From Candidatus Hinthialibacter antarcticus (GTDB taxonomy: Bacteria; Hinthialibacterota; Hinthialibacteria; Hinthialibacterales; Hinthialibacteraceae), in the NCBI GenBank assembly GCA_030765645.1, contig JAVCCE010000052.1, forward strand, positions 13,662 through 77,661: a stretch of 64,000 bases of DNA, in the 5' to 3' direction. Shown here piece after piece: positions 14,338-61,940 of this stretch. Within the stretch, counting starts at the first letter, position 1. Every line of letters begins with the position of its first letter. The notes beneath the pieces are model-generated. The model saw only the letters and a program-made list of their open reading frames with translations, had not been told where the DNA came from and did not search any database. Made by a program: the position numbers and the translations under genes.

Positions 14338-14552
14338 AGTTCATCCGGTCAGTGAGTACTTACAGTGATGGATGACCATGATTGTATTACGAAAACATAT
14401 TCCGGCATATCAAAAATTGAAAAACCAAATTAGGCATGGGGGCAACTCTGGGAGCGCCTGTGTATGAGGGCCTGAAAGCCCGCACTGAAGCGAGCAGAGT
14501 TGTACCCATGCCACATGCAGCCTGGTAGGGTAGGCTCGCGGAGCAGCCCACC
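14338..14552 (+). repeat. Composite repeat: MITE-A left arm, 80-bp hairpin copy A (14433-14512) and a GTAG REP (14525-14552)
   Basis: AGTTCATCCGG start aligns with 52685 and 57665. The hairpin aligns with the other copies. Confidence 0.85.
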
Positions 14553-14679
14553 GGAAAACGAACAAAACGAAAATTGGTTTCGCGTTCTTTGATAAGTTGA
14601 ATGAGGAGAGGTGTTCCTAAAAAAACGCCCCACCGAATGTTCGATGAGGCGTTGTAGCGGCTGATCTTGTCGTGTGGGT

Positions 14680-15351
14680 TTATGATTTGGCGCGGGCGGC
14701 GCGCTTTTCTTCTTTTTTCTTCTGCGCGATGTAATACTCCGGCAAGTCGTGCGAAACCGGGACGGTTTTCTCTTCTTCTTCCTTCCACGTCATGCCTTTA
14801 CGGAACCATTCGTCTTTTTTCTCAATCGGAACCAGCAGGCGGTCTTTGGTATAGATGAAGTCGTCGCGATGGGTGCTGGCGGCTTCCCAATTGGGGCCCA
14901 TGACAATGGCGTCTTCGGGGCAGGCTTCTTCACAAAAGCCGCAGAAGATGCAGCGCAGCATGTCGATCTGGTAAAATTTCGCATGACGTTCGCCGTGCGA
15001 CACCATGTTATCGGGCGTGTTTTCGCAAGCTTCGAGATAGATCGCGTCTGACGGGCAGACCACCGAACAAAGGCCGCACCCTACGCAGCGTTCTTTTCCA
15101 TCCTCGAAGCGCTGTAAGCGGTGCACCCCGCGAAAGCGCGGCGATTGAGAGCGCTTCTGGTTGGGATAGTTAAACGTAACTGGTTTACGGAACAGGTGGC
15201 GAAAGGTCAACGACATGCCTTTGACGATCGCCAAAAAAATCTGGAACGAGCGCGACCAGCCAAGGGTTTTGATTTGCCCCGCCGTGACATGGACTTTTAC
15301 GCGGCCTTGTTTGGGTTCCGCAGGAATCTGTTTAAACACCGCTTCTTGCAT
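14680..15351 (-). CDS. nuoI: NADH-quinone oxidoreductase subunit I (2x[4Fe-4S])
   Basis: FRGVHRL, CVGCGLCSVVCP, YQIDMLRCIFCGFCEEACP. Confidence 0.92.
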   Translation of the reverse strand: MQEAVFKQIPAEPKQGRVKVHVTAGQIKTLGWSRSFQIFLAIVKGMSLTFRHLFRKPVTFNYPNQKRSQSPRFRGVHRLQRFEDGKERCVGCGLCSVVCPSDAIYLEACENTPDNMVSHGERHAKFYQIDMLRCIFCGFCEEACPEDAIVMGPNWEAASTHRDDFIYTKDRLLVPIEKKDEWFRKGMTWKEEEEKTVPVSHDLPEYYIAQKKKEEKRAARAKS

Positions 15352-15761
15352 CGGACAGTATCCTTAAAATAGGGTGGACATTTTTTTTGAAGCGCCGAAG
15401 GTGCAGGTCGTCACATGAGCGTATATTTAACCCGAAACGAGAGTAAATTCCAGTGTGTCTTGGTTTTTTTCCTGTTGTAGTCAAATGAGTTACATCTGGC
15501 TGGCTGCGGCAATTTGCCGCGCAAGAATGCCGCAGTTAAGTCACGAATGGCTGCGGCATTATTGCTGAATTGTAGTATGTGTAACATGAATATCAGATAG
15601 GAAAATACGATTTAACGCGCTGTTTTATTGAGGTTTATTGAGTAGGGTGTTAAAACTTACTGGTTCGATCAAACTCGCATGGTAATTGCATGTTTCCTAC
15701 ATAGCTGTATAACGATTTATTCAAAAGCCCTGACTTTAATGAGGAAGAGAGCCAACTTAGG

Positions 15762-17111
15762 ATGATGGATCAACAACGCGCCGAATCTTCTTCCTGCCAC
15801 TTTATCGTTCTGAGTTTTAACCATCAGAATCTCGCGCTGCCTGACTTACGCCAGTATCTTTTTGAGCAAGATGAACTGGACGCATTTTTAGCCAGCCTGA
15901 AAACGCGATGCCACATTGACGACGCGATCGGGTTGTGTACGTGTAACCGCGCTGAAATCTATATCATTACCAATTCCGTTCGCGAAGGTATGACCACAGC
16001 GTTACAAGCGCTGGCGGAACGCAACCATGTTTCGGTTGAAGACTTGCTTTCGATCCTGACCGTGAAGGTCGATTCAAACGCGGTGACCCATCTCGCCCGG
16101 CTGGCGTCCGGTTTGGAGTCAATGGTGGTGGGCGACGGGCAGATATTAGGGCAACTAAAAAAGTCTTACCAACAGGCCAACCAAGATAATGGCGCCCATC
16201 GGGCGACCCATATTCTCTTGCAAAAAGCGTTTTCCATTGCCAAGCGGGTGCGCAACGAAACCGGGCTGGGCAAAGGCCGGGTGTCGGTCAGCGCCTTGGC
16301 GGTCGAGTTTGCCAAAGAGCATTTCGGCTCCATGCACAAAGTACGCGCCGCTGTAGTCGGCGCTGGCAAGATGAGTTCGCTGGCGGCGAAGTATTTATAT
16401 CAGGCGGGCGTGAAAGAACTGCGCATCGTTAACCGCACCTACGAAAGTGCGCAAGAACTCGCCCAGCAAGTCAACGCGACCGTGTTTGGGTTAGACGAAA
16501 TCGAACGCGCCCTGCAAGGCTGCGACTTGATTATCTGCGGCACCGCCTCGACTGAGCCCGTGATTACTCCCGCATTGTTTGAATCCGAACGCCTGCGCGG
16601 TCAAGCGCCGCAGATGGCGATTGATATTGCCTTGCCGCCCGACATCGACCCCGCCGTCGCTGAAATGGACTGCGTTGAAGTGGTCAGCTTAGAAGACCTG
16701 CGCGCTTGCGCCGAACGAAACCAGGCGGGCCGCGAAAGCGAACTGGCTCACGCCGAAGAAATTGTAATGAGCGAACTCAAACAACTCGGTCCTTGGCCGC
16801 AACCCATTCAACTTGACCAGATCGCCAAAGACCTGGGCGTTTATGCAGACCGTATTTATCAAGAAGAATTGCAAGGCTTGTATGATCTGGTTCCTGATTT
16901 AACGCCAGAGCAGCAAGAAGCCGTCGCCGCCCGCATGAAACGCATGGCGGAACGCATCGTGCTCGCGCCGCGCCGCAATTTGCGCCGGGGCGAAACCATT
17001 AAATCATGCCCCGAAGCAGTCAAGTGTCTGGCGGAAGTATTTCGCGAAGCCAGCGGCGCGCGTTCGCTGGCAGCCGTGACGCTTGAACCTGCATCCACCA
17101 ACGAAAAATAA
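15762..17111 (+). CDS. hemA: Glutamyl-tRNA reductase (divergent)
   Basis: TCNRAE catalytic Cys, GLESMVVG..QILGQ, GAGKM, NRT, DIALP. First gene of the hem cluster. Confidence 0.88.
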   Translation: MMDQQRAESSSCHFIVLSFNHQNLALPDLRQYLFEQDELDAFLASLKTRCHIDDAIGLCTCNRAEIYIITNSVREGMTTALQALAERNHVSVEDLLSILTVKVDSNAVTHLARLASGLESMVVGDGQILGQLKKSYQQANQDNGAHRATHILLQKAFSIAKRVRNETGLGKGRVSVSALAVEFAKEHFGSMHKVRAAVVGAGKMSSLAAKYLYQAGVKELRIVNRTYESAQELAQQVNATVFGLDEIERALQGCDLIICGTASTEPVITPALFESERLRGQAPQMAIDIALPPDIDPAVAEMDCVEVVSLEDLRACAERNQAGRESELAHAEEIVMSELKQLGPWPQPIQLDQIAKDLGVYADRIYQEELQGLYDLVPDLTPEQQEAVAARMKRMAERIVLAPRRNLRRGETIKSCPEAVKCLAEVFREASGARSLAAVTLEPASTNEK

Positions 17112-17133
17112 TCCAATTTAGAGAGAGCATTCG

Positions 17134-19600: not shown

Positions 19601-19619
19601 GCAATATTCTTTAGACGAT

Positions 19620-19784
19620 TAGAAGCCATCTCAAAAATATGTGAGCCAAACATAGTGAGGAATCAAGGCGACCGAACCGAGGGGGAGGGCGAGGCTCCCG
19701 ACGAGCCGCGTCGTATCGAATCGCTTTCTTTCTACCTCGGCTCACCAGGAGGTTCGCCCTCCCCGCATTTTGAGATAGATTCTA
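19620..19784. mobile_element. MITE-B (165 bp) carrying an inverted pair of GGAG-type REPs
   Basis: Ends TAGAAGCCATCTCAAAA / TTTTGAGATAGATTCTA (15/17 inverted match, TA at both outer ends). Inside: GGGGAGGGCGAGGCTCCCGACGAGCCG (19682-19708) and CGGCTCACCAGGAGGTTCGCCCTCCCC (19738-19764). Confidence 0.7.
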
Positions 19785-19817
19785 TCTAAAACCAATTAAC
19801 GCATAGTGAAAAACATC

Positions 19818-22225: not shown

Positions 22226-22247
22226 TTCGATTGGAAACCAAAATACG

Positions 22248-23192: not shown

Positions 23193-23228
23193 CAAGCATA
23201 ATAGCGACAATGTTTGCAGCGCTATGTC

Positions 23229-28787: not shown

Positions 28788-29634
28788 CCGATGAAGCGGG
28801 TGCGCGTTGGTGTGAGAGCATCCACTGAAAGAGTTCTTCGTTGTAGGCGAACGGCCCGACGTCGTGCAGCAGCCCGTTGATGACGGTCAGGCGCGTATCG
28901 CCGCCCGCTGCCTGGATATCAGCGACGAAGTCCTGCACCAGTTCGAGTGGAATCAACGGGTCGCGGTCGGCGACGAAAGCCCAAACGGGCGTTTGAGCAA
29001 GCGCGACCGCATCGCCGACGAAGGTCTCTTCAGGATGCGCATCGCGAAAATCGAAGCCTCGTTTTGCGCCTTCCGGCCCGAAGATAATTTGAAAGATCAA
29101 CTCGCGTTCCTGATAGGCGAGTTCGAGGTTGCCGTTGGCCGCTTGCGGCGCAATCGCGGCGAAGCGCTGTGGATAGGCCGACGCCATCGCCCACGAACCA
29201 AAGCCGCCCATGCTGAACCCCGTCAGGTAAATCCGCGTCAGGTCAATTGGATAGTGCTGACGAATTTCGACTAACAGCTCATCCAGTTTGGTGGAGCGCC
29301 ACAGCGGGTCAGTTCGCAATGGCGTGACGATGATGAACTCGTTCAAACTCGGATATTGCGCATCGACAACGGCGGGCAATTGCAATAAGCCGGGAATGTT
29401 TTCGTTCAGCGTTGCCCCCATGTCGCTATCCAGCCCTTCGCCGCCGTGCAGGTAAATCATCAGCGGCCAGATCATATCGACGTCAGGATTATAATTCGGC
29501 GGCAGCCAGATCAGGTAATTGAAATAGCCCGGCGAATCAACGAACGCCTGCCGCCCGGCAGACGGTTCCTGCGCATGTGCGATGTGAAATAAAAACGCCA
29601 GACCAAAACAAATACCGAAGATATATTTTTTCAT
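28762..29634 (-). CDS. Secreted alpha/beta hydrolase (esterase/peptidase-like)
   Basis: Signal peptide, PLMIYLHGG, nucleophile GFSMG, D..DP..P and distal His. Confidence 0.8.
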   Translation of the reverse strand: MKKYIFGICFGLAFLFHIAHAQEPSAGRQAFVDSPGYFNYLIWLPPNYNPDVDMIWPLMIYLHGGEGLDSDMGATLNENIPGLLQLPAVVDAQYPSLNEFIIVTPLRTDPLWRSTKLDELLVEIRQHYPIDLTRIYLTGFSMGGFGSWAMASAYPQRFAAIAPQAANGNLELAYQERELIFQIIFGPEGAKRGFDFRDAHPEETFVGDAVALAQTPVWAFVADRDPLIPLELVQDFVADIQAAGGDTRLTVINGLLHDVGPFAYNEELFQWMLSHQRAPASSATDWMMYQ

Positions 29635-31868: not shown

Positions 31869-34268
31869 ATGAAACGCGACGCGCTGGCGTTGGCGATGGT
31901 GTTCATCGCTATTTTATTGTTTACGCATGAAGCCTGGCTGGGCGGACAAAGCCCCTATGGCGGCGATGTCGCTGAACAATTTTATCCCTGGAAAGTATTC
32001 GAACGCGCCCAACTCGCGCAAGGCGAAATTCCCTATTGGAACCCGTACGCCTATGCGGGCGCTCCGTTTCTCGCCAACGTGCAATCGGCGGTGTTTTATT
32101 TGTTTGACTGGATGTTGTTCGTCTTTCCAATGGAACGCTTCTTCGGCCTGTCGTTGGTACTGCATTTCTTGATCGCGGGCGCGGGGGCGTATTGTTTCGC
32201 CCGTATCTGCGGCGCCACCCAGTTTCCGTCAATGATCGCGGGCGCGGCCTATGGGCTGAACGGCTTTGCGATGATCCACATTCCGTTCGGCAACCATCTG
32301 ACCTATGCGGGCGCGGCCTGGGCGCCGTGGATGTTGTTCGCCGCGACCGGGTTTCTGTTCACCCGCGAGCGGCGGCTGGCTTGGGCAATGGCTGCGACGG
32401 CGATCACGTTTTTGCATTTCACCTGCGGGCATCCGCAGATGTTATTTTATTCAATCGTGTTTAGTTTGGTCTTTGTCTTTACGCTGCAAGCCTGGCGGGT
32501 GCGCCGCGACGGCGCCTTTACCTGGACGCAGCCCCTTTGGATGACGACGTTATTTGGGTTCGCCCTGTTGTTGGGCGTATTGATGGCGTCATTTCAATTG
32601 TTCGCTACGTTGGATTATTTGGCGCTGGCCAATCGCGCCGCCTCGCTCGACGTGAATGCGGCCACCGAGTTTTCGTTCGCGCCGCACCGTTTGATTACGC
32701 TGCTGTTCCCTGAATTTTATGGCAGCCAAATCGCTTTTCATTATGATTTCTACGTGTATTGGTCGTGCGCCTATGCGGGGGTGATCGTTCCCTTTTTGGC
32801 GTTGTCGATGTTTCGCAAGGGCGAGCGTCCAGTCGCGGCGGTCCCGCTGGCGGTGATTGCGCTGTTGGGTTTATTTCTCGCCTGTGGACGCGGCAACCCT
32901 ATTTACACGCTGTTGCTTCAAATGCCGGGCTTCGGTTATTTTCGCGCGCCTGCGAAGTTTTTGCCGTATTATCTTGTTGCCGTGAGTGCGCTGGCGGCGT
33001 TGGGGCTTGAGCGTCTCGCGGCGGAAGCGTACCAGAAATTCACCTTGAAGACGCAAAGCAAAGCAGCGAAAGAAGCCGAGTTTGTCGGCTTGGCGCCGTC
33101 AGACAATACCGTCGGGTGGATGCGCATTTTCGGCTTGGTTATTGTGCTGGCCGTTGTGTTTTTCTTTGGCGTTCCGCATTTGTATGGTTTGGTGGATACG
33201 TTACGAACTCAGATGTTGGTCAACATAGCCGGGCCGGAGAGTTTGCGCCAGGCGATTAGCAATATTCGCGCGTATTCGATGTCAATCGGCGGCGTGTTGA
33301 TGTTGAGCGGGTTGGCGATTTATTTGTATGCGAAAAAAGTCCCGAAGGCGCCGCGCGCGGTGATGTCGTTCTCGTTGATGTTGTTGTTATGTTTAGACCT
33401 CTTTTTATTCGGGCGGCAATATTTTTTGGCGACCTTGTATTCCGCTGATGAAATTCAAGCGAACGCTTCAACGCCCGCCGCAGTGAAGTTCATCAAATCC
33501 ATGCCCGATTTTCAGATCGAAGACCGCTTGCAGACGCTCGCGAATTACCGTACGCCCAACCACGCCGTCATGTGGAGAGTTTCAAACACGGCGGGCTACG
33601 ACCCCATGAGTTTGAAATCATACAACAGCCGCATGGCCGTGATGGAAGGCTGGCAAGACGGCGACTATCACGATGACATTGACCTCAAGCAGTATGACCA
33701 TCCTGTCCTCGATGAATTGAATGTGCGTTTTATTTTAACGACGGAACCAATCGACGACCCTGCGGTCAAGCCCTTATTTACCGGCCCGCGTTTACGCGCC
33801 TATGAACGCGCCAGCGATCAACGCAGTTGGGCGGCGATTGCGCAGCGGGCGGCAAGCGACGAAGACGATGCGCTGTCGGACGAGGTTGCAGAAATCGCTG
33901 ACTGGGCGCCGACCCGCGCGACGGTGCAACAATATGAACCCCAGCAGATCGTTTTTGATGTTGACGTTGCTTCGCCGGGCTGGCTGCGGGTGTCCGAGTG
34001 GAACTATCCCCATTGGCGCGCGCGCATTCGTACGGGTGAAGAGCGGTGGCGCCCGCTGAGCGTTTATGCAACCGCAAACGGCTATCGCGCACTGGCGCTA
34101 GACGCGGGGCATTGGACGGTTGAGTTGACTTACAATGAACCGTGGGGACGCTGGTTGTTGACCGGCCTCGCTTGGGTGGTTTTCATCAAACTGGCGGCGC
34201 TCGCGTACCTGCTGGCTACCGGGAAATTCTGGACGTTTATCCAACGCGCATTTGGACGCTACTACTAA
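31869..34268 (+). CDS. YfhO-family membrane protein (GT-C-like glycosyltransferase)
   Basis: GEIPYWNPYAYAGAPFLAN, YFRAPAKF, C-terminal 'SEWNYPHW.A..NGYRA' YfhO-like segment. Confidence 0.82.
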   Translation: MKRDALALAMVFIAILLFTHEAWLGGQSPYGGDVAEQFYPWKVFERAQLAQGEIPYWNPYAYAGAPFLANVQSAVFYLFDWMLFVFPMERFFGLSLVLHFLIAGAGAYCFARICGATQFPSMIAGAAYGLNGFAMIHIPFGNHLTYAGAAWAPWMLFAATGFLFTRERRLAWAMAATAITFLHFTCGHPQMLFYSIVFSLVFVFTLQAWRVRRDGAFTWTQPLWMTTLFGFALLLGVLMASFQLFATLDYLALANRAASLDVNAATEFSFAPHRLITLLFPEFYGSQIAFHYDFYVYWSCAYAGVIVPFLALSMFRKGERPVAAVPLAVIALLGLFLACGRGNPIYTLLLQMPGFGYFRAPAKFLPYYLVAVSALAALGLERLAAEAYQKFTLKTQSKAAKEAEFVGLAPSDNTVGWMRIFGLVIVLAVVFFFGVPHLYGLVDTLRTQMLVNIAGPESLRQAISNIRAYSMSIGGVLMLSGLAIYLYAKKVPKAPRAVMSFSLMLLLCLDLFLFGRQYFLATLYSADEIQANASTPAAVKFIKSMPDFQIEDRLQTLANYRTPNHAVMWRVSNTAGYDPMSLKSYNSRMAVMEGWQDGDYHDDIDLKQYDHPVLDELNVRFILTTEPIDDPAVKPLFTGPRLRAYERASDQRSWAAIAQRAASDEDDALSDEVAEIADWAPTRATVQQYEPQQIVFDVDVASPGWLRVSEWNYPHWRARIRTGEERWRPLSVYATANGYRALALDAGHWTVELTYNEPWGRWLLTGLAWVVFIKLAALAYLLATGKFWTFIQRAFGRYY

Positions 34269-34307
34269 TCCCTATATTTCTATATTCAGGCTGCGTGAGT
34301 CGGGGCA

Positions 34308-34480
34308 GGCGTGGGTACGTCTCTCTTCGCTTCCGTGCGGGCTATCAGGCCCTATGCACAGGCGCTCAACGCCACCCTACTTGAAACGCATCATTCATCT
34401 GCGGTAGGGTGGGCTCGCGTTAGCAGCCCACCATGCAATGTTTCAACAATTCAAACGGGTGGGTTTTTAATCCACCCTAC
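34308..34480. repeat. REP cluster: partial or chimeric 80-bp hairpin (34308-34380, minus) and an inverted GTAG REP pair (34404-34432, 34458-34480)
   Basis: Aligns directly to the other copies. GTAGGGTGG ends. Confidence 0.8.
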
Positions 34481-34505: not shown

Positions 34506-36713
34506 TTATTTCGTTAGCGCGAGCAGCGGCAAGCGCCCTGAACCTTTGCAATGCGCACAGGTGTAGGTCAATCGTTTGGTCAGGCTGCGGCCCGAACGCT
34601 GGCGCGTGATCTGCACCAAGCCCAGATCGGTAAACTGCTGCAAATCGGTCGGGGTGCGGTCTTTGGCGAGCTCGCGTTCGATGGTTTTAAATACGCGGTC
34701 TTGGTTTCGTTTGAGCCGCATGTCGATGAAGTCCACAATGATGATGCCGCCCAACTGGCGCAGCCGCATCTGACGCGCCACTTCAACCGCCGCTTCCTGA
34801 TTGGTCGTCGAGATCATTGCTTCGAGGTCTTTGCCGCTGACGTTTTTGCCGGAGTTTACGTCGATGGCGGTGAGCGTTTCCATTTCTTCGATAATGATGT
34901 AGCCGCCGCAATCCAGATAAACGATATTGCTGAATAAATGGTCGATGTCTTTGGTGAGGTTGTACGCCTTCCAGATCGACTGGGTCGGGTCGTCAAAAAA
35001 GCGGATGAAATCGTCAGCGTCGCGTCGCGGCGAGACCAGTTTCATTGATTGAGTGATGCGGTATTTTAAACGTGGATGATACAGCACCACTTCATCAACT
35101 GCAGTAGAGAAGTGATCGCGCAGCACTCGCTCGAACAGATGCAGCTCGCGGTGAAGGCACTTGGGTTTCGAGCCGGATTCAAACTCGCTCTGTATTTCTT
35201 TCCAACTGCGGGTGAGATATTGCAGGTCCTGGCGAATTTCGCGGGCGCTGTTTCCCGCGGACGCGGTGCGGAAAATCAGCCCGCCGTCGGTCCCGATTTC
35301 TTGCTCGGCCAGTTCGTAGAGCGCCTTGCGTTCTTTATCGTTTAACTGGCGCGACATGCGTACCACTTGGGTGTAGGGCATGTAGATCAAGAAGCGGCCT
35401 GGCATGGAAATTTTCGAGGTCAACGCCGGGCCTTTGTCGCCGATGGCTTCTTTGGCCATTTGCACCAACACTTTATCGCCGGGGCGCAGCGCGTCTTCGA
35501 TTTTGTCGATGCGCTTCTTGCTGCCGCTGCTCTTGCGCTGCCGATAGACCTCCGGGCCCATCTCTTGAAAACTAAGAAAGCCTTCTTTATCGAGACCGAT
35601 ATCAACAAACGCCGCCTGTAGCGCGGGAATCACTTTCGATACCACCCCGCAATAGATGCTGCCTGCTGAGCCGCGGTCAACGCGGTGTTCTTCTTCGACC
35701 CAAAAGTCGGTTACATTCCCGTCTTCGGTAATGACGGCGATGCTGTACGAAGATTCTTCCGCAAAGATCATGCGGCATACTGGCTTTTTAGACGCAGGCG
35801 CCCGTTTGGTCGCGCTGCGGGGCCGCGACGTCTTGGTTCGATCTTGGACGGTAGTTTTTGCTGGTTCAGCGCTGGGTGTTTTCGAAGCGGCAGCCGCTTG
35901 AGGCCGCGCATTACTCGTGCGTTTTGATGAACTTCTACGCCTGGAGGCCGGGCGCTTCGTTTCTGTGGGCGCTTCGTCGGTTGTTGCTGGAGCCTCAACG
36001 GTCGGTTCGCTTGGCGCTGCGCTTTCGGCTACATCGGTTTGTTCAGCCGCTGCGGCCTTGCTTGCAGGACGCTTACGTCCAACGCCGCCGCGTCGACCCC
36101 GACGCGAGGGACGTTTTTTCTCTGTGGTCGCTTCGTCGGTTGTTGCTGGAGCCTCAACGGTCGGTTCGCTTGGCGCTGCGCTTTCGGCTACATCGGTTTG
36201 CTCAGCCGCTGCGGTTTTGCTTGCAGGACGCTTTCGTCCAACGCCGCCGCGCCGACCCCGCCGCGAGGGACGTTTTTTCTCAGCGGAATTTTCGTCTGTT
36301 GTTGCCGGAGCCTCAACGGTCGGTTCGCTTGGCGCTGCGCTCTCGGTCGCAGTTGTTTGCTCAGCCGCTGCGGTCTTGCTTGCGGGACGCTTTCGTCCGA
36401 CGCCGCCGCGTCGACCCCGCCGCGAGGGACGTTTTTTCTCAGTGGAGGTTTCGTCGGTCATTGTCGGAGCCTCAACGGTCGGTTCGCTTGGCGCAGCGCT
36501 CTCTGCAGCAGTTGTTTGCTCAGCCGCTGCGGTCTTGCTAGCAGGACGCTTTCGTCCGACGCCGCCGCGCCGTCCACGACGGGTTGGACGCTTTTTTTGC
36601 GTCTCGTCGCTGCCTGCGGACGCACTTAACTCGGCGCTGTCTGCGTTTTGGTTACGGGATTGACTGTCGGGGGTTGTTTTACTTCGGGTGGTTTTTTTTG
36701 TTGTGGTTTTCAT
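34506..36713 (-). CDS. rne: Rne/Rng-family ribonuclease with a long repetitive N-terminal extension
   Basis: S1 region GSIYCGVV..LQAAFVDIG, QMAKEAIGDKG, TAIDVNSG, IIVDFIDM, Zn-link CAHCKGSG. The rne versus rng label is uncertain. Confidence 0.88.
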   Translation of the reverse strand: MKTTTKKTTRSKTTPDSQSRNQNADSAELSASAGSDETQKKRPTRRGRRGGVGRKRPASKTAAAEQTTAAESAAPSEPTVEAPTMTDETSTEKKRPSRRGRRGGVGRKRPASKTAAAEQTTATESAAPSEPTVEAPATTDENSAEKKRPSRRGRRGGVGRKRPASKTAAAEQTDVAESAAPSEPTVEAPATTDEATTEKKRPSRRGRRGGVGRKRPASKAAAAEQTDVAESAAPSEPTVEAPATTDEAPTETKRPASRRRSSSKRTSNARPQAAAASKTPSAEPAKTTVQDRTKTSRPRSATKRAPASKKPVCRMIFAEESSYSIAVITEDGNVTDFWVEEEHRVDRGSAGSIYCGVVSKVIPALQAAFVDIGLDKEGFLSFQEMGPEVYRQRKSSGSKKRIDKIEDALRPGDKVLVQMAKEAIGDKGPALTSKISMPGRFLIYMPYTQVVRMSRQLNDKERKALYELAEQEIGTDGGLIFRTASAGNSAREIRQDLQYLTRSWKEIQSEFESGSKPKCLHRELHLFERVLRDHFSTAVDEVVLYHPRLKYRITQSMKLVSPRRDADDFIRFFDDPTQSIWKAYNLTKDIDHLFSNIVYLDCGGYIIIEEMETLTAIDVNSGKNVSGKDLEAMISTTNQEAAVEVARQMRLRQLGGIIIVDFIDMRLKRNQDRVFKTIERELAKDRTPTDLQQFTDLGLVQITRQRSGRSLTKRLTYTCAHCKGSGRLPLLALTK
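35961..36596 (-). repeat. Coding tandem repeat, 4 x 159 bp (53 aa)
   Basis: Units begin KKRP at 36596, 36437, 36278 and 36119. Unit consensus KKRPSRRGRRGGVGRKRPASKTAAAEQT..ESAAPSEPTVEAPATTDE. Confidence 0.95.
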
Positions 36714-38352: not shown

Positions 38353-38380
38353 GGTGGGCTGCTTCGCGAGCCCACCCTAC
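38353..38380 (-). repeat. GTAG-type REP
   Basis: Reverse complement GTAGGGTGGGCTCGCGAAGCAGCCCACC, identical to 42159-42186. Confidence 0.85.
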
Positions 38381-42086: not shown

Positions 42087-42325
42087 GGGTGGGCGAGACT
42101 CCCGCCAAGCCAAATAAAGTAGGGTGGTTCTTAACCCACCAAAAAAAATTAAAGCAGGGTAGGGTGGGCTCGCGAAGCAGCCCACCGGATGAAACCGCCC
42201 CTCACCCCAACCCCTGCCTGCGGCAGGCAGGCTCTCCCATAGGGAGAGGGAGCAGATTGTGGTTTAGCCGTAGGGTGGGTTCTTAATCCACCAAAGAAAA
42301 TGTAGGGGCGCAGCGCGTTGCGCCC
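42087..42325. repeat. Mixed REP cluster
   Basis: GGAG-like REP 42087-42111. GTAG REPs at 42119-42140, 42159-42186, 42270-42292 and 42302-42325. CCCTCACCCC..GGGAGAGGG repeat 42198-42250 containing a 19-bp palindrome. Confidence 0.85.
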
Positions 42326-43179: not shown

Positions 43180-43299
43180 GTTTGAACTTATTGAAGTATT
43201 AGAAGCACAACCGTTACCTGTCTCTATCGCTGAGCCGTTCCGGCGCGCTGACACTCTGCTTGTCAGTATGACCGGGCTGCCTCGCCATCTTATAGCCGG

Positions 43300-43371
43300 G
43301 TAGGGTGGGCTCGCGAAACAGCCCACCAGAAAAAACTGAAGCAAGCAGAGTTGTACCCATCCCACATGCAG
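43300..43371 (+). repeat. GTAG REP followed by the 3' part of the 80-bp hairpin
   Basis: GTAGGGTGGGCTCGCGAAACAGCCCACC, then ACTGAAGCAAGCAGAGTTGTACCCATCCCACATGCAG. Confidence 0.8.
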
Positions 43372-43517
43372 ATTTATGAAAAAGTATCCAATTAACCAAA
43401 GAACCCAAATGAATGTAATAACGCCCGTCAGGAATCCCTCTTCATCTTGAGCCGGAGCGAATTTTTCGTTCTAATGTACGAGTTACCTCAGCCGAGTGAA
43501 TTCAAAGGAGATTGTCC

Positions 43518-49054: not shown

Positions 49055-49239
49055 GAATCTATCTTAAAACAATGATAACGAAAAGGATGTGCGAGATATC
49101 ATAATATGACAACTCATTACTGGCCTGGGTGTAACTCTGGGAGCGCCTGTGCAAAAGGGCCTGAAAGCCCGCACTGAAGCGAGCAGAGTTGTACCCAGGC
49201 CTTTTGCAGCGAACGATCAATTATTTCGAGATGGCTTCT
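49055..49239. mobile_element. MITE-B shell carrying 80-bp hairpin copy E (49122-49201)
   Basis: GAATCTATCTTAAAA..TTTCGAGATGGCTTCT ends match the 19620 element in the opposite orientation. Confidence 0.62.
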
Positions 49240-52684: not shown

Positions 52685-52900
52685 AGGTTCATCCGGTAAG
52701 TGAGTACCTACATTGATGGATGGCCATAATATTTATTCAGAAACAGGCTCCGGCATTTCACAAATTGAAAAACCAAATATAGGCATGGGTGCGACTCTGG
52801 GAGCGCCTGTGCATAAGGGCCTGAAAGCCCGCACTGAAGCGAGCAGAGTTGTACCCATGCCGCATGCGATGAAATCTCAATCCAATTTATGGAAGAACCT
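52685..52900. mobile_element. MITE-A (216 bp) carrying 80-bp hairpin copy B (52782-52861)
   Basis: Left AGGTTCATCCGGTA, right ATGGAAGAACCT. Arms align with 57665-57929. Confidence 0.72.
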
Positions 52901-55674: not shown

Positions 55675-55854
55675 TATCAATCTCACTTTGTGATTAGATT
55701 TATCGGACAAGTATTATAGTCGAACCATAGTCTGCTCCGTAGCGGGAGGAAAAATGGCAAGCGAGAACAAACGCTTTGAATCCATCGACTGCTAGAAGCG
55801 GCTTTTTTGCGGGCCTAGTCTTTAGCATCTGGAGAAATTCATTTACAGTTTGTC

Positions 55855-56048
55855 TAGAAGCCATCTCATAAAACAGGATTTCAGCAGATCGTAAATTGAC
55901 AAACCAAATCCGGCATGGGTGCAACTCTGGGAGCGCCTGTGCAACAGGGCCTGAAAGCCCGTACTGAAGCGAGCAGAACCGTACCCATGCCGCCCGCACC
56001 GAAATCTCAATTCAATTTATAATAAAGCACCCCGTTTTCGGAAGAACC
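55855..56048. mobile_element. Chimeric element: MITE-B left end, 80-bp hairpin copy C (55912-55991) and MITE-A right end
   Basis: TAGAAGCCATCTCATAAAA at 55855. CGGAAGAACC at 56039-56048. Confidence 0.62.
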
Positions 56049-56222
56049 AGAATACACCCAATACTGAACTATTTTGGAGCCGCGTCGGCTGGCGTTGTTT
56101 TTCGCTGCGCTTACCCGCCTCAAGGCTTTTCATCTTTGAGAATAACAATTTTCAGAGTGAACATTTTAAGTTAAACTGTATTTTGGCGGGTGCAAACTTG
56201 AATCACGCCTTGGAGCAAAACA

Positions 56223-56513
56223 ATGGGCATTGACGAAATCATTGGCGACAAACGCGATGAGATATTAAAGATTGCGGAAAAGCACGGCGCGTTAAACGTA
56301 CGCGTCTTCGGCTCGGTCGCGCGCGGCGAAGCCACCGAAGACAGCGATATTGACTTTTTGGTGGACCTTGAGAAAGATCGAAACCTACTCGACCTCGGCG
56401 GCTTATTGATGGACTTGCGAGATTTGATGCCGATGAGCGTTGATGTGTTTACTCCGAACTCACTCAAAGCCTATATTCGAGAAGAAGCGCTGCGAGACGC
56501 GAAACCATTATGA
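56223..56513 (+). CDS. mntA: MNT (minimal nucleotidyltransferase) antitoxin
   Basis: VFGSVARGE..DSDIDFLV. Confidence 0.9.
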   Translation: MGIDEIIGDKRDEILKIAEKHGALNVRVFGSVARGEATEDSDIDFLVDLEKDRNLLDLGGLLMDLRDLMPMSVDVFTPNSLKAYIREEALRDAKPL

Positions 56514-56839
56514 GAAGACCCAAACAACGGCTTCAAGATATTCTTGATGCGATTGAAAAAATAGAACGCTATGTGCTACAAGGAAAAGAACGCTTTGTTG
56601 AAGATGAACTCGTGCAGAATTGGTTCGTCACTCAAATCTTAATCATAGGCGAAGCGGCAAAACACTTGCCTGAAAGCGTTTATCACGAAAATCCTGATGT
56701 TGAGTGGAATAAAATCATTGGCATGAGAAACATTCTTGTGCATGGATATTTCACCATTGACTTGGATACTGTCTGGGGAGTCGTCACGGATTACATGCCT
56801 GAATTGAAAAAGAATATACTGAGGATTTTGGATGAGTAG
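56510..56839 (+). CDS. hepT: HEPN (DUF86) RNase toxin
   Basis: IIGEA, RNILVH (R-x4-H), ATGA overlap with the MNT gene. Confidence 0.9.
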   Translation: MRRPKQRLQDILDAIEKIERYVLQGKERFVEDELVQNWFVTQILIIGEAAKHLPESVYHENPDVEWNKIIGMRNILVHGYFTIDLDTVWGVVTDYMPELKKNILRILDE

Positions 56840-56921
56840 AATAAGCAGTTATGAGCGAATCAAGTTTAATTAGCGACGCCTTGTGAGGATTATAAAATTC
56901 TTTCAGGAGGGATATTAAATT

Positions 56922-57683
56922 ATGAATACCTATATCGCTTTTTATAACACTGAAAAAGAGCGCGAAAATTTTAACGCCAACCCATTCAATGAAGTGGAAA
57001 TATATGTGAAAAATGCGGAAATAAAACAAGGTGATTTAGTTTATTTGTATTTATACGGCAAGTTAAAGGATGGCATTGTAGCAAAAGGAATCGCATTGAC
57101 GGATTCATGTGGAGAAACAAATAAAAAATATATACCTTTTAGAATAGAACAATCCATTGATGAAAAAAGTGCTTTAAGGTGTAGTCAGTTACCAATTGAT
57201 CGAACCAAATTATATATAAAACGAAAAGAAGGAGAACGAAAAAAAGACTCTGCATTCAATATTAATAATGTGGCAGAGGAATTGAATCAAATTTGGGGGA
57301 ATTGGCTTGACGGTTTGGATGTTAAATCGCCTGAAGAAATAAGCAATAGACAAAATGTATATGAAGGCGCAAAGAAGAAAGTCTATGTCAATGCTTATGA
57401 AAGAAATAAAAAAGCGAGAGAAATGTGCCTTGCACACCATGGATGTAAATGCTCGGTTTGTGACATCTTATTAGAAGATAAATATGGTGAAATAGCAAAG
57501 GATTTCATTCATGTTCATCACCTTGTTCCTCTATCAAGCGTCAACGAAACTTACAAAGTAGATCCTATCAAAGATTTAATACCAGTTTGCCCCAATTGCC
57601 ATTCAATATTACATAAACGTGATAGGCCATATTCAGTAGATGAATTGAAAGAAATATTAAATTTTGGTTCATCCGGTAAGTGA
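56922..57683 (+). CDS. HNH endonuclease (McrA-like C-terminus, possible PUA/EVE-like N-terminus)
   Basis: VNAYERN..R..C..HHG..CSVC, VHHLVP, VCPNCHSILH. Strongly AT-rich. Confidence 0.85.
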   Translation: MNTYIAFYNTEKERENFNANPFNEVEIYVKNAEIKQGDLVYLYLYGKLKDGIVAKGIALTDSCGETNKKYIPFRIEQSIDEKSALRCSQLPIDRTKLYIKRKEGERKKDSAFNINNVAEELNQIWGNWLDGLDVKSPEEISNRQNVYEGAKKKVYVNAYERNKKAREMCLAHHGCKCSVCDILLEDKYGEIAKDFIHVHHLVPLSSVNETYKVDPIKDLIPVCPNCHSILHKRDRPYSVDELKEILNFGSSGK

Positions 57684-57929
57684 GTACCTACATTGATGGA
57701 TGGACATGATTTTGGTTATGAAAACCTATTCCGGCATTTCACAAATTGACAAACCAATCAGGTATGGGTGGAACTCTGGGAGCGCCTGTGCATAAGGGCT
57801 TGAAAGCCCGCACTGAAGCAAGCAGAGTTGTACCCATGCCTGATACAGCAAAAGATCAAGAATTCACGAAAAAGCGTCAAAAAACGCAATTCAATTTGTG
57901 ATAAAGTACCCAAATACCGGAAGAACCTA
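57665..57929. mobile_element. MITE-A (265 bp) carrying 80-bp hairpin copy D (57761-57840)
   Basis: GGTTCATCCGGTA..TACCGGAAGAACC (12/13 inverted match). Confidence 0.75.
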
Positions 57930-57992
57930 AATTTTGAATGCAATTGCAAAAAGTAGCGTAGGTTAGGTACTCAATCTACTCTGCGGTTTTCC

Positions 57993-59093: not shown

Positions 59094-59201
59094 GTTCTTC
59101 TCCTGGATACTATTTCGATTAAGCCACTGAGTAGTGTATCTTCGTATGCGTAGGATTCACGGGGCGCGAACAAAATCAGACCAGAACCGGTCATTGCGTA
59201 A

Positions 59202-59281
59202 GGCTTGAGTACAACTCTCTTCGCTTCAGCGTGGGCTTTCAGACTCTAAAACACAGGCGCTCACAGAGTTACACCCAAGCC
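59202..59281 (-). repeat. 80-bp hairpin copy F
   Basis: Reverse complement GGCTTGGGTGTAACTCTG..GAGAGTTGTACTCAAGCC. Confidence 0.85.
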
Positions 59282-59361
59282 TTTTGTCATCAATATTTCA
59301 GAATGTATGTTTAAATTGGCTTGATCCCGATATAATGTTGGCAGCGATAGGAGATAAATAT

Positions 59362-59538
59362 ATGTCAAGCGCAAAAACGGAAGTCGAGTTACTTTTGCAG
59401 AAATTGCCGGATGACTGCACAATTGAAGACATCCAGTATCACCTCTATGTGGTCGATAAAATTAACCGGGGGGTAGAACGGGCCTCTCTAGAGGGGACTT
59501 TCACGCAAGATGAGGTTGAAATACGGCTTAAACAATGA
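59362..59538 (+). CDS. Small antitoxin of a ParE/RelE TA pair
   Basis: AGGAG RBS and 58 aa 'LPDDCTIEDIQYHLYV..INRG'. The stop overlaps the toxin ATG. Confidence 0.72.
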   Translation: MSSAKTEVELLLQKLPDDCTIEDIQYHLYVVDKINRGVERASLEGTFTQDEVEIRLKQ

Positions 59539-59816
59539 AACGAAAAATCGTTTGGTCTCCAGAAGCTGTTGATGACGTTGAGTCAATTTATAACTTTATC
59601 GCCCGTGATTCCAATGCGTATGCAAAATCTGTAGTCGACAAGATCATTCAAACAGTAAAATTTATCCCCGACCACCCTTATGCTGGACGCATTGTTCCAG
59701 AAATCAACCAAGAAACCGTTCGAGAAAAATTAGTATTCAGTTACCGTTTAATCTACAAAATTTCTGAAACTGAAATTTTGATTGTCACGGTTCTGCACGA
59801 TAAGCGTCTATTATAG
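59535..59816 (+). CDS. RelE/ParE-family toxin
   Basis: IVWSPEAVDDVESIYNFIA..GRIVPE..YRLIY..TVLH. Confidence 0.88.
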   Translation: MKRKIVWSPEAVDDVESIYNFIARDSNAYAKSVVDKIIQTVKFIPDHPYAGRIVPEINQETVREKLVFSYRLIYKISETEILIVTVLHDKRLL

Positions 59817-59859
59817 TGGTTGCCAGAATACTGTGCGGATTGAGTTTCAACTGTATCTA

Positions 59860-59892
59860 TTGCTGCGCCCCTGCCTGCGGCAGGCAGGCTAC
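59860..59892 (-). repeat. GTAG REP remnant interrupted by the 19-bp palindrome CCTGCCTGCGGCAGGCAGG
   Basis: GCTGCGCC + CCTGCCTGCGGCAGGCAGG + CTAC. Removing the insert gives GCTGCGCCCTAC, the reverse complement of a GTAGGGCGCAGC REP. Confidence 0.7.
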
Positions 59893-59956
59893 AGGTGCGC
59901 TTTACGCACATATTTTTGACAGATGTTCTAGCGCTTGAAAGCTGATCTCGAACCAT

Positions 59957-59987
59957 AAAAAACGGGAGCGACGTTGCGCCGCTCCCG
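59957..59987 (-). terminator. Intrinsic terminator
   Basis: A-run then CGGGAGCG..CGCTCCCG. Confidence 0.75.
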
Positions 59988-60012
59988 CGTAAATGCTAAT
60001 TCAATGATCGAA

Positions 60013-61317
60013 TTATGCGCCCGGGTCTGGCACCCAGCCGTCGTTTTTGTCATACGGTTTGCCGCCGGGAATCTGTATCGGACGCGTCGGCACGGGGCCG
60101 AGTTTGTAGTCTTCATACTTAGCGTGCAGCCCGAGGGTCTGGTTTGATTTGAGCGCTTCGTCCCAAGTGACTTCACGCGCTTCGTAGCCCGCCATGCGCC
60201 CCATGATGGCGGTCATGGTCGAATAGGCGACGTTTCTCGCTTCGTTGATGTAGCCGCCGCCAGTGATCGCGGCGATCAGGTCGGCGTGTTCCTGGACGTA
60301 ATCTTTGGTTGCGTCTTTGTCAAACGTCCAGTTTTTGCCGTCGGCGTTGATCCAGTTGCTGCAATTGGATTGCCCTTTGGTCCCGCGCACGATTTCATGC
60401 ACGCGGCTGAACTCGCCTGGTTGTTGTTCGCAGTAACTGCTGATGCGAATTCCATTTTCAAATTCAAAATCAACGGCGTGGTGGTCCCAGATGTCGCCGC
60501 GTTCCTGCCACGAGCGACCGCCGATTGCGGCTGCTTTGGCGGGGTGCGAACCTTCGCCCATTGTCCACAGCGCCACGTCGAGGTTGTGAACGTGTTGCTC
60601 AACGATGTGGTCGCCGGAGAGCCACTGATAGTGATACCAGTTGCGGATGTGATATTCCATCTCGGTGATATCGTCAGTCTTTTCGCTAAAACCGATGGGC
60701 CCGCCGCACCAGTAGACGTAAAACGCCATGATGTCGCCAATGGCGCCATCGTGGATACGGTCGATGGTTTCGATGTATCCGGCGTTGTGGCGTCGCTGGG
60801 TTCCCGCCGCGATGTTGATTTTTTTCGCTTTGGCTTTTTCGTATGCGTCGAGAATACTACGGATGCCGGGGGCGTCGATGGCGGCGGGTTTTTCCATGAA
60901 GCAGTGCTTGCCCGCGTCGATGACCGCGTTCAACATCATCGGGCGAAACACCGGCGGCGTGGCCAGAATGATGTAATCAACATCGCTGGCGATGACGTGC
61001 TTATAGCCGTCCCAGCCGGTGAAGCAGTTGGCCTCATCAATCGACTGGTCAAACTTGGCGAGACGCTCCTGGGTTTGTTTGATCTTGCGCGGGAACAGGT
61101 CCGCGATGGCAGTGATCTTGACGCCGTCGTGTGCGCGGATCGCATCTTCGATAGCGCCTTTGCCGCGGCCTCCGCAGCCGATGACGCCGACTTTAATCGG
61201 AGTTGCAGCGCGCGCGTCTTTTGATTTTAGCGCTGAAAAGGCTGCAATTGACGCGGCGCTGGCCGCGCTTTTGGCGACAAAATTGCGCCGGGTTAAAATG
61301 GTCGGTCTGTCAGTCAT
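60013..61317 (-). CDS. Tat-exported Gfo/Idh/MocA oxidoreductase
   Basis: TRRNFV, GVIGCGGRG, MEKP, EQHVHNLD. The start may be 61332. Confidence 0.9.
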   Translation of the reverse strand: MTDRPTILTRRNFVAKSAASAASIAAFSALKSKDARAATPIKVGVIGCGGRGKGAIEDAIRAHDGVKITAIADLFPRKIKQTQERLAKFDQSIDEANCFTGWDGYKHVIASDVDYIILATPPVFRPMMLNAVIDAGKHCFMEKPAAIDAPGIRSILDAYEKAKAKKINIAAGTQRRHNAGYIETIDRIHDGAIGDIMAFYVYWCGGPIGFSEKTDDITEMEYHIRNWYHYQWLSGDHIVEQHVHNLDVALWTMGEGSHPAKAAAIGGRSWQERGDIWDHHAVDFEFENGIRISSYCEQQPGEFSRVHEIVRGTKGQSNCSNWINADGKNWTFDKDATKDYVQEHADLIAAITGGGYINEARNVAYSTMTAIMGRMAGYEAREVTWDEALKSNQTLGLHAKYEDYKLGPVPTRPIQIPGGKPYDKNDGWVPDPGA

Positions 61318-61461
61318 TTTGCATATCCCCATTTTTATAATTGAGTAAACTCACGTCATTATCTCAAACGCCGTAGCCGATGGCAAGAAGCGCGGCTAAG
61401 ATAATTATTCACCCCGGAAAATCCCCCTCTGACACCAATTATAAATGAAGGATATTCACCA

Positions 61462-61878
61462 ATGGGTCTATTGGATTGGTTGTTTGGAAAAAGCCAGAAA
61501 ACGACGCTGCCCGAGTTGGATGACGCGCCGCCTGAAGCGCAGCAAGAATACTCGTCGCCGGAAATTTCACCGCCGGAAGTCAAACAAAAACTTGATGCGG
61601 GCGAGTCGGTCATTCTGCTTGACGTTCGCCAGCCGGAAGAATTAGACATTTGCCGCATCGAAGGCGCCATGCACATTCCCATGATGGATGTGCACGAGCG
61701 CTATAAGGAAATTTCCGACGAGCCCAATGCGGAGATCATCGTCTTTTGCCATCACGGTTCGCGCAGTATGCAGGTGATGCATCAGTTGTGGGGGCTTGGC
61801 TATCAAAACGCCAAGAACATGTCGGGCGGAATCCACGCCTGGTCGCTCGACGTTGACCCCAAAGTGCCAAGGTATTAA
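61462..61878 (+). CDS. Rhodanese-domain sulfurtransferase
   Basis: LLDVRQPEE, HIPM, FCHHGSRS, MSGGIHAW. Confidence 0.9.
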   Translation: MGLLDWLFGKSQKTTLPELDDAPPEAQQEYSSPEISPPEVKQKLDAGESVILLDVRQPEELDICRIEGAMHIPMMDVHERYKEISDEPNAEIIVFCHHGSRSMQVMHQLWGLGYQNAKNMSGGIHAWSLDVDPKVPRY

Positions 61879-61896
61879 AAACGGTTGCACAGGTTT

Positions 61897-61940
61897 GGGT
61901 GCATCTTTCCTCGCTTCAGTGCGGGGCTTACCGCCCTGTT
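61897..61940 (-). repeat. Degenerate 3' half of the 80-bp hairpin
   Basis: Reverse complement CAGGGCGGTAAGCCCCGCACTGAAGCGAGGAAAGATGCACCC. Confidence 0.65.

Follow-up and report, generated by a model that had tools for sequence, protein, structure and literature searches.

The 80-nt hairpin dispersed through the window (the whole 64,000-nucleotide stretch of DNA analysed) is the central module of a non-coding, non-autonomous DNA transposon (MITE) of 258–263 bp. Taken as a whole, the evidence is best explained by a MITE with a constrained central hairpin that the element needs for its propagation, a reading to which we assign a probability of roughly 0.6. MITEs are a known kind of element; the unusual part here is the well-kept structured core. 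The preliminary description took the repeat unit to be 80 bp, but similarity between copies runs on for ∼90 nt either side of the hairpin, up to terminal inverted repeats.

One intact 262-bp copy occupies positions 57666–57927 (+), matching nhmmer profile positions 1–262 (E = 2e-90) and comprising a left terminal repeat, left arm, hairpin (57761–57840), right arm and right terminal repeat. Its architecture is that of three nested inverted repeats: terminal, subterminal and the central hairpin of 80–88 nt. The terminal repeats are ∼22–30 bp long and begin GGTTC(A/T)TCCGG; in the intact copy GGTTCATCCGGTAAGTGAGTAC pairs in the fold with its reverse-complement partner GGTTCTTCCGGTATTTGGGTAC, with 18 of 22 positions matching. 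The subterminal repeat is CACAAATTGA / TCAATTTGTG. The whole intact element folds at −97.4 kcal/mol (z = −9.1) with all three repeat tiers paired. The terminal repeat was found three times in the window, where none is expected by chance, and also in 15 related loci, and six complete copies of 258–263 bp could be aligned end to end.

The same octamer, TAAATTTT, stands on either side of the intact copy (57658–57665 and 57928–57935) as an 8-bp target-site duplication. This copy landed in an HNH gene, replaced its final codons and supplies its stop codon; the original HNH frame is readable past the duplication, the broken frame picking up at the right octamer (...NFECNCKK*). The element marks recent gene-altering insertions, such as this one at the HNH C-terminus. 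More generally, 8-bp A/T-rich direct repeats flank nine of ten complete copies, five of them perfect and four with one mismatch, and insertion sites are A/T-rich and mostly intergenic.

The collection of ∼50 copies draws on the window, one MAG (GCA_964556895.1), close relatives and one metagenome; nine lie in the window and ∼45 in related loci. The hairpin starts GGCATGGG and is 80–88 nt long. Metagenome contigs with the element are mostly just 1–3 kb, and the element fragments assemblies of an uncultured lineage, to which Candidatus Hydrogenedentes and Hinthialibacter are the closest named kin. Scored with the nhmmer profile, copies range continuously from full elements, by way of partial ones, down to hairpins alone. 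The same full-to-degenerate gradient is reported for other prokaryotic MITEs (PMC10969869).

The six full 80-nt hairpins first described in the window, at 14433, 49122, 52782, 55912 and 57761 on the plus strand and 59202 on the minus strand, were all confirmed. Besides the intact copy, that at 14338–14521 (+) retains the left terminal repeat (two mismatches), left arm and hairpin (14433–14512; profile 2–183, E = 3e-52), with a REP-like insertion (14515–14561, family D5) in place of the right arm. The copy at 52686–52893 (+) has a perfect left terminal repeat (0 mismatches), hairpin 52782–52861 and a shortened right arm (profile 1–204, E = 1.5e-59). A partial MITE at 55871–56048 (+; profile 56–262) has lost its left end and keeps hairpin 55912–55991, with three A-C mismatches in the stem, and the right terminal repeat; an older one at 49076–49238 (+; profile 51–212) keeps hairpin 49122–49201 without terminal repeats. 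The hairpin-only copy at 59192–59300 (−), upstream of ychF, is the most diverged in the window (hairpin 59202–59281; profile 73–184; 81 bits with model R1) and has two additional G-U pairs.

Three partial copies had also been reported. They exist, but their descriptions required revision. The first, 34304–34385 (−), is a near-whole hairpin-only copy with a degenerate 5′ arm (49.9 bits), lying between convergent genes, YfhO-like at 31869–34268 (+) and RNase E/G at 34506–36713 (−). The second, 43335–43390 (+), is truncated to the hairpin 3′ half and the beginning of the right arm, a REP-like element (43290–43336) taking the place of its 5′ part. The third, 61890–61937 (−), is a weak degenerate remnant of the 3′ half of the core and the 3′ arm (nhmmer E = 0.0014), with a 16-nt exact core match by blastn. 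An 18-nt arm pattern has 12 matches in the window at ≤3 mismatches, against 0.04 expected from shuffles; one, at 29407–29424 (three mismatches), has no further element sequence nearby and was treated as chance.

Staggered-cut DDE transposition leaves target-site duplications, while HUH elements insert without them. Terminal inverted repeats and 8-bp target duplications on complete copies therefore indicate DDE transposition and not a substrate of the HUH transposases (REP/RAYT, IS200/IS605) that the preliminary description had proposed. A RAYT/TnpA gene flanked by the motif was looked for in the window, by Pfam scans of 50 ORFs, and none was found. The consensus hairpin folds stably both as RNA (−50.6 kcal/mol, z = −7.1) and as ssDNA (−26.7 kcal/mol, z = −7), and it may act in either form. 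The ssDNA fold would suit a hairpin that is itself the substrate of an HUH (Y1) transposase, the terminal-repeat unit having merely captured one copy; so would the stem covariation described below, the hairpin-only copies with unrelated flanks and neither terminal repeats nor consistent duplications, and the frequency with which REP-like elements of this genome abut the hairpins. We nonetheless consider such an origin very unlikely. It is the evidently recent, complete copies that bear terminal repeats and duplications, and traces of the MITE right arm survive in many hairpin-only copies (profile to 197–221), as expected of decayed MITEs. The window has no Y1 transposase. REPs, which RAYT (HUH) mobilises, measure 20–40 nt, carry a GTAG head and have neither terminal repeats nor duplications, whereas this hairpin is 80–88 nt and has no GTAG head. 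A separate, shorter GTAG-type family in the same genome, GGGTAGGGTGGGCT..AGCCCACC, fits the REP traits and is the better REP candidate.

The MITE would instead be moved in trans by a DDE-type transposase of an insertion sequence, each insertion duplicating 8 bp of A/T-rich target. A transposase or autonomous partner was looked for in the window and in all fetched loci, and none was found; the loci have no protein in common that could be a shared transposase, and Pfam scans of the 50 window ORFs showed no cognate insertion-sequence transposase. The 8-bp duplication and GG-start ends would presumably fit ISL3-, IS1595-, IS256-, IS6- or IS66-like families, which we take as candidate parents and as a lead only; ISL3 ends such as GGCTCTTCCG presumably resemble the GGTTCATCCGG of this element.

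As the preliminary description stated, the repeat matches no named family. Rfam gave 0 matches at the gathering score over the window, the hairpin had none even with E allowed to reach 10, and BLAST of the whole MITE against plasmids and phages gave no match. Searching the literature for the sequence itself, for the study behind the MAG and for repeats of Hydrogenedentes returned nothing. Scanning viral contigs gave 0 matches to the core pattern; with the terminal-repeat pattern there were two matches, one due to chance (L040) and the other a MITE copy (L041), whose contig is identical to locus L009 and is the same locus.

Within a stretch of 44% GC, the copies at 55912, 57761 and 59202 bracket MNT/HepT, HNH and ParE-type modules. 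Such an arrangement at 55.9–59.3 kb could recall a chromosomal integron or attC cluster, with hairpins as attC-like sites flanking small accessory genes (toxin-antitoxin, HNH); attC sites also work as folded ssDNA, and AAC and GTT triplets are present in the stem arms. This is contradicted by orientation, gene content and target duplications: the copies lie in both orientations, large housekeeping genes (aconitase, ychF, GH127) are found among them, and terminal repeats with duplications show transposition. Moreover, no integrase is encoded in the window, and the stem is fully paired, whereas attC sites, with R″/R′ core sites and in co-oriented arrays, contain extrahelical bases and a spacer that stays unpaired. 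We regard an integron origin as extremely improbable.

The preliminary description held that the fold is under selection, and the covariation test supports this. Among 41 distinct copies, 15 of 22 outer-stem pairs changed on both sides and 0 of 500 shuffles reached this or any of the five measures used, although the shuffle tests are inflated by the close kinship of the 41 sequences, the majority of which derive from a single metagenome. Slid controls paired in 27–41% of cells, against 88% observed. Pair 4 in the window is, as first noted, A-T in four copies, C-G at 49122 and T-A at 59202; across the 41 copies all four Watson-Crick types occur. The asserted restriction of G-T wobbles to one orientation, by contrast, failed. 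Non-consensus single changes in the stem numbered 27 G-U versus 22 A-C over the 41 copies, and 55912 alone has three A-C/C-A mismatches; in diverged copies the wobbles were ∼12 G-U versus 5 A-C (p = 0.14). The strand bias was not significant in either set.

Could the hairpin be a historical palindrome of a recently amplified element, with no function, its compensation produced by differing master copies together with intrastrand template switching or repair? Young copies do mismatch at random (27 G-U, 22 A-C and 47 other, against 44 compensated cells), the kinship of the 41 sequences weakens the shuffle tests as noted, some hairpins are plainly decaying (43335, 61890), and the closest relative shares no hairpin-only copies. 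We think this quite unlikely in view of ∼10 independent diverged copies, in which 78–100% of pairs are kept despite substitution of 19–53% of arm positions, mostly as double changes. In the same copies only 7–14% of the core is substituted, 2–5 times less than the stem arms. Mobile copies argue in the same direction: mean pairwise identity among 20 long copies was 0.90 and 0.86 for the terminal repeats and 0.92 for the core; the stem arms reached 0.86 and 0.88, and the drifting element arms 0.76 and 0.74. In mobile copies, then, conservation of the core equals that of the terminal repeats and exceeds that of the element arms. Finally, copies of the MAG subfamily have the apical GGGC-CUGAAA-GCCC swapped for a short GGC-GGA-GCC and yet keep both internal loops.

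Two modes of constraint are seen within the hairpin, the outer 18–22-bp stem being kept by compensatory changes and the core being kept in sequence. The 44-nt core is near-invariant, GGAGCGCCUGUGC-AUAA-GGGC-CUGAAA-GCCC-GCACUGAAGCGAG, and varies only in the A-rich bulge, at N19/N62 and in the apical stem-loop. The nested stems of the preliminary description agree with fold prediction (GC/GC, GUGC/GCAC and GGGC-CUGAAA-GCCC); apart from the apical exchange the inner helices never vary, so covariation is silent on them. We infer a function for the hairpin, which would be a cis-acting structure required for propagation of the element, perhaps a site where a transposase or host factor binds or folds it, with the structure formed by a single strand or as a cruciform.

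Functional RNAs typically combine, as this hairpin does, an asymmetric core that does not vary with a covarying closing stem and an apical stem-loop that can be exchanged. The core might accordingly be a structured RNA in its own right, such as a small RNA, a ribozyme or a motif that binds a protein or ligand, with a host-level function, picked up and spread by the MITE. Consistent with this, the G-U at stem position 10/71 is kept in 33 of the 41 copies, diverged ones included, candidate tandem sheared G-A pairs (G20-A61 and A21-G60) are invariant, and one copy (L003) has four U-G pairs that would be A-C mismatches on the opposite strand. We judge it unlikely all the same, for the hairpin has no Rfam match even at the permissive E value, scans of the intact copy showed no promoter-like site, nor any terminator-like one at the hairpin, and the wobble bias is not significant. 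In addition, neighbouring genes are met in both orientations, no gene class consistently adjoins, and several copies are truncated without replacement. A related proposal we put forward tentatively, at odds well below even: the core may hold an undescribed functional nucleic-acid motif, spread by the MITE across a little-known phylum and retained by the host at gene 3′ ends after the arms decay. Its features might be the tandem G-A pairs, the GCCU/UGAA internal loop, the conserved G-U and the replaceable apical stem-loop. Conceivably it is an RNA that binds a protein or ligand, an element that is ribozyme-like or serves in processing, or a cofactor site in ssDNA that transposition requires.

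Other candidates were tried and rejected. Coding is excluded by stop codons in the frame of the 59202 copy and by the length changes of the apical stem-loop in MAG copies. In particular, a small peptide starting from an ATG at hairpin positions 4–6 fails: variants at pair 4 remove the ATG, an in-frame stop interrupts the 59202 copy and the frame is shifted in the MAG copies. A promoter in the element, suggested by a TTGACA that precedes the hairpin, was also dismissed: this hexamer belongs to the subterminal inverted repeat, a −10 box at proper spacing is lacking, and the promoter scan was negative. Resemblances to SRP RNA, 5S rRNA, k-turn, sarcin-ricin and tetraloop-receptor motifs were discarded on unfitting loop sequences and lack of Rfam support.

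The element is much like prokaryotic MITEs such as QMITE1 and QMITE2 of Coxiella burnetii (reviewed in PMC10969869), which are small and non-coding, with terminal inverted repeats of ∼23–29 bp, direct repeats of 7–9 bp, A/T-rich intergenic sites, very stable transcript stem-loops, and full and degenerate copies together. It has no sequence similarity to them, and no cognate insertion sequence was identified here. Its centre also differs, being a separately conserved asymmetric 44-nt core within a covarying stem that outlasts the terminal repeats. This makes it a clean case of conservation of MITE internal structure, beyond the ends. The Correia elements (NEMIS) of Neisseria, MITEs that abound between genes, give rise to RNA hairpins that RNase III processes; they can terminate transcripts or alter mRNA stability, and their functional central site binds IHF. 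Correia elements measure 100–155 bp, duplicate TA and build their hairpin from the 26-bp terminal repeats. The present element differs in its 262-bp length, its 8-bp duplication and its conserved internal hairpin, ∼90 nt from either end. ERIC/IRU and REP/BIME of Enterobacteria are dispersed imperfect palindromes, transcribed and intergenic, often at gene 3′ ends, that stabilise or process mRNA. ERIC is ∼127 bp and is not known to make a target duplication of this kind. Neither ERIC nor REP showed sequence or Rfam similarity to this hairpin.

Hairpin-only or short copies lay between convergent ORFs in 7 of 10 cases, as against 3 of 15 long copies (Fisher p = 0.034, with gene calls that were crude ORFs). 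This enrichment of old copies parallels the distribution of REPs. Enrichment between convergent genes is also predicted by neutral survivorship. No orientation bias was seen relative to flanking genes at tandem sites (three sense versus four antisense). Inspection of flanks showed no consistent target duplication around hairpin-only copies, so they may have spread by another route. Between the window and its closest relative (∼85% nucleotide identity) no hairpin-only sites were common, and long-term retention finds no support there. Comparison of orthologous sites (ychF in three relatives, the YfhO-like neighbourhood and the apparent L019 synteny) found a different gene order at every hairpin site, which shows neither shared retention nor a clean empty site.

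The armless copies retain a paired stem. Hairpins of REP, ERIC and Correia elements have been described as 3′-end barriers, terminator-like structures or sites of RNase III-type processing. In transcripts the 22-bp stem here might, less certainly than its role in propagation, act in any of these three ways; alternatively, armless copies may merely survive where insertion was harmless. If the core is necessary for transposition or active in transcripts, it would show how a gene-end signal can be recruited from a transposon-borne hairpin; otherwise the family is an ordinary repeat, which annotators of these genomes should mask. A scan for Rho-independent terminators found none at the hairpin, whose consensus has no plus-strand U tract and a U-rich tail on the minus strand only; in the intact copy the sole terminator-like site lies in the right arm, where the minus strand forms a small stem. 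Some old copies do have a T-run that forms a canonical terminator, as in L042 downstream of ychF, and T7 runs were seen in individual old copies (L042, L019/L036).

The 18-nt arm of the hairpin, GGCATGGGTGCAACTCTG, has 12 matches in the window at ≤3 mismatches, where shuffles predict 0.04. BLAST with the 80-nt consensus of the preliminary description recovered all six of its full hairpins (14433, 49122, 52782, 55912 and 57761 on the plus strand and 59202 on the minus strand), and the three partial copies it had listed returned partial matches at 34327-34367(-), 43335-43360(+) and 61910-61925(-). The nested stems were reproduced in the consensus RNA fold (-50.6 kcal/mol, z = -7.1), and pair 4 varied as reported, being A-T in four copies, C-G in one and T-A in another. 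The hairpin observation is confirmed by this agreement in arm count, copy coordinates, fold and pair-4 variants. The opposite strand and the DNA form of the consensus likewise give good folds. The preliminary description could not match it to a named family, and it is without match in Rfam, plasmids, phages and the searched literature; a scan of the whole 64 kb at Rfam gathering thresholds yielded neither tRNAs nor riboswitches nor any other known RNA.

The repeat unit, taken at first to be 80 bp, proved longer. Copies aligned with their flanks share conserved sequence on both sides of the hairpin, and a repeat finder returned a 136-nt family plus a further 92-nt upstream family common to three copies. 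Copies from the genome and metagenome scans give a unit of 258–263 bp with the hairpin central. Its 5' end is GGTTCATCCGGTAAGTGAGTAC and its 3' end is the reverse complement of GGTTCTTCCGGTATTTGGGTAC; the two ends agree at 18 of 22 positions (end patterns GGTTCWTCCGGTA ... TACCGGAWGAACC). A subterminal inverted repeat, CACAAATTGA / TCAATTTGTG, forms a second tier, and the whole-unit fold pairs all three repeat tiers (-97.4 kcal/mol, z = -9.1). Direct repeats of 8 bp, A/T-rich, flank nine of ten complete copies, five perfectly and four with one mismatch. Terminal inverted repeats, a target duplication of fixed length, small size, absence of coding sequence and many copies are the hallmarks of miniature inverted-repeat transposable elements, or MITEs (PMC10969869). 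The element is a bacterial MITE whose family is new and whose internal hairpin is unusually well conserved; its lineage has received little study. It evidently transposes into A/T-rich sites via 8-bp staggered target cuts, and would be mobilised in trans by a DDE transposase encoded by a separate insertion sequence. An 8-bp duplication with GG ends would presumably fit ISL3-, IS1595-, IS256-, IS6- or IS66-like families. Pfam scans of 50 window ORFs turned up no transposase gene of any type.

The intact copy at 57666-57927, flanked on both sides by TAAATTTT, is inserted in the last codons of an HNH gene (56922-57683). The gene now ends ...GSSGK-stop, supplied by the element, and the original ...ECNCKK-stop is readable past the right duplication; six codons were replaced (ECNCKK to GSSGK; relevant coordinates 56922-57683 and 57928-57956). 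The same insertion allele is present on ENA contig ERZ27316069 k141_33328 (locus L006). A profile built from six complete copies was used to class the collected copies, which form a gradient from full (profile positions 1-262) through partial (~51-214, for example 49076-49238) to hairpin-only (~91-177, for example 59192-59300 and 34304-34385). Coding capacity was excluded by inspection of the copies. Two copies stand in direct tandem, ~211 bp apart, at L002 3879-4269 in the metagenome-assembled genome described below, and at locus L027 a pair of copies, nested or adjacent, has one outer duplication (AAAAACAT) in common.

The preliminary description had proposed the hairpin as an HUH transposase substrate of the REP kind. 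This is contradicted by the terminal repeats and target duplications of the element, by a hairpin size unsuited to that role and by the missing GTAG head; moreover, a separate GTAG-type, REP-like family in the window is a better HUH candidate. This second, shorter repeat has the classic REP architecture, a GTAG head followed by a G+C-rich palindrome, GGGTAGGGTGGGCT-N8-AGCCCACC. Copies lie at 14515-14561, 38353-38376, 42149-42195, 43290-43336 and ~34390-34440(-), and outside the window at L019 ~1122-1145 and upstream of the hairpin in L034. They often adjoin hairpins, three of those in the window abutting or truncating copies 14433, 43335 and 34304. Integron-type attC sites were ruled out by copy orientation, gene content and target duplications.

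Genome and metagenome collections were scanned with patterns based on the hairpin's invariant core. The genome scan gave five loci, all in one metagenome-assembled genome (MAG; uncultured bacterium SRP141376_co3_53, GCA_964556895.1), and the metagenome scan gave 33 contigs, 30 of them genuine, nearly all from Ga0222672. Young copies are present in the window's own contig, in GCA_964556895.1, in the ERZ23487398 scaffolds and in Ga0222672. The window is ordinary chromosome; its identified genes include chorismate synthase, AspRS, DnaJ, RNase E/G, aconitase and ychF, a cluster for haem biosynthesis, glycoside hydrolases, GFO/IDH/MocA oxidoreductases, two toxin-antitoxin pairs and an NtrC-type regulator. 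Among named organisms, Candidatus Hydrogenedentes and Hinthialibacter MAGs have the proteins closest to its YchF and to a YfhO-like protein (~45–68% identity); closer relatives stand at 94%, 88% (GCA_964556895.1) and 82%. Copies of the element occur in the relatives at 94% and 88%, and none was found in 21 kb of the 82% relative (GCA_016125385.1, 57% GC).

Among 41 distinct hairpins, 15 of the 22 outer-stem pairs have changed on both sides, and pair 4 occurs as A-U, G-C, U-A and C-G. Pairing drops from 88% to 27–41% when the partner is slid by 1–3 columns. None of 500 shuffles reached any of five covariation measures, a result to be read with the tool's warning that related sequences may beat shuffles even without structure; we therefore added copy-by-copy inspection. 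In some ten diverged copies, 19–53% of the 36 arm positions are substituted, mostly by double Watson-Crick changes, and 78–100% of pairs are kept; only 7–14% of positions differ in their 44-nt core, mainly in the A-rich bulge and at N19/N62. The double changes, the shuffles and the pairing kept in diverged copies support the earlier proposal that the fold is under selection. Covariation is silent on the inner helices, since these are invariant. Two full-length copies in the MAG have the apical GGGC-CUGAAA-GCCC swapped for a short GGC-GGA-GCC or a variant, and retain GAGCGCCUGUGC and GCACUGAAGCGAG.

Mean pairwise identity over 20 long, presumably mobile copies was 0.92 in the core, 0.90 and 0.86 in the terminal repeats, 0.86 and 0.88 in the stem arms, and 0.76 and 0.74 in the element arms. 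Judged from these identities, constraint on the hairpin is therefore about as strong as that on the putative transposase-binding ends. A neutral palindrome, a hairpin without function, is quite unlikely, given that diverged copies stay paired with a core less substituted than the arms and that mobile copies conserve the core like the terminal repeats. The central hairpin is conserved, its stem in structure and its core in sequence, and would be a cis-acting module of the MITE.

Wobble pairs had been described as limited to one orientation, which is wrong: copy 55912 has three A-C mismatches. Single stem changes in all copies number 27 G-U to 22 A-C, as random decay of young copies predicts; in diverged copies only, the count is ~12 to 5 (p = 0.14). 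Stem pair 10/71 is still G-U in 33 of the 41 copies, and four U-G pairs occur in a single MAG copy. These pairs lean towards the plus strand without deciding for it, and sequence alone does not tell RNA from single-stranded DNA. Scans of the element for sigma-70-like promoters were negative, as was the search for terminator-like sites at the hairpin. Where the neighbouring genes run in tandem, the element lies sense to them in three cases and antisense in four. An independent functional RNA that the MITE has spread is an unlikely reading. The finding would gain in interest if the core proved to work as an RNA or as a cofactor site for transposition.

By crude ORF calls, convergent ORFs flank 7 of the 10 resolvable hairpin-only or short copies (25% expected, p = 0.0035), with both stops usually 15–140 nt away, versus 3 of 15 long copies (Fisher p = 0.034). 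A T7 run turns some old copies into textbook terminators, for example 3' of ychF in the related contig L042. REP, ERIC and Correia elements have transcript-level roles at gene 3' ends. Convergent placement would fit such a role here, and survivorship in harmless sites would fit equally. In the relatives compared, none of the hairpin sites has kept its gene order, so retention at orthologous sites was not demonstrable. After arm decay, the hairpin would persist mainly at convergent gene ends, and its 22-bp stem may act on transcripts as a barrier, a terminator-like structure or an RNase III-type site.

A third dispersed repeat, ATAGTGGTTGCCAGAATACTGTGCGGATTGAGTTTCAAC..., bears two small hairpins and could be another mobile element's end or a regulatory site. 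It occurs in the window at 59811-59930 and 14154-14194, and at L042 19958-20081, L045 2034-2137 and L001 5088-5199; in L045 and L001 it adjoins a MITE copy, whose right arm is shortened in L045. Accessory genes around ychF (56223-57683 and 59284-59816) encode an MNT/HepT toxin-antitoxin, the HNH protein and a ParE-type toxin-antitoxin, within a 56-60 kb stretch of 44% G+C. The ychF-flanking positions differ in close relatives: L042 has a helicase, L045 another HepT/MNT and an HTH gene, and L046 nothing between GFO and ychF. The RNase E/G gene (ORF 34506-36713(-)) contains 4–5 tandem 159-bp (53-residue) repeats of 90% identity at 35965-36597, upstream of the catalytic domain. Finally, a motif, GCCCGTGAA ... 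GATACACTA, is conserved upstream of ychF in three genomes (window 59110-59180, L045 9930-9990, L046 9900-9990), possibly as a ychF promoter or leader element.
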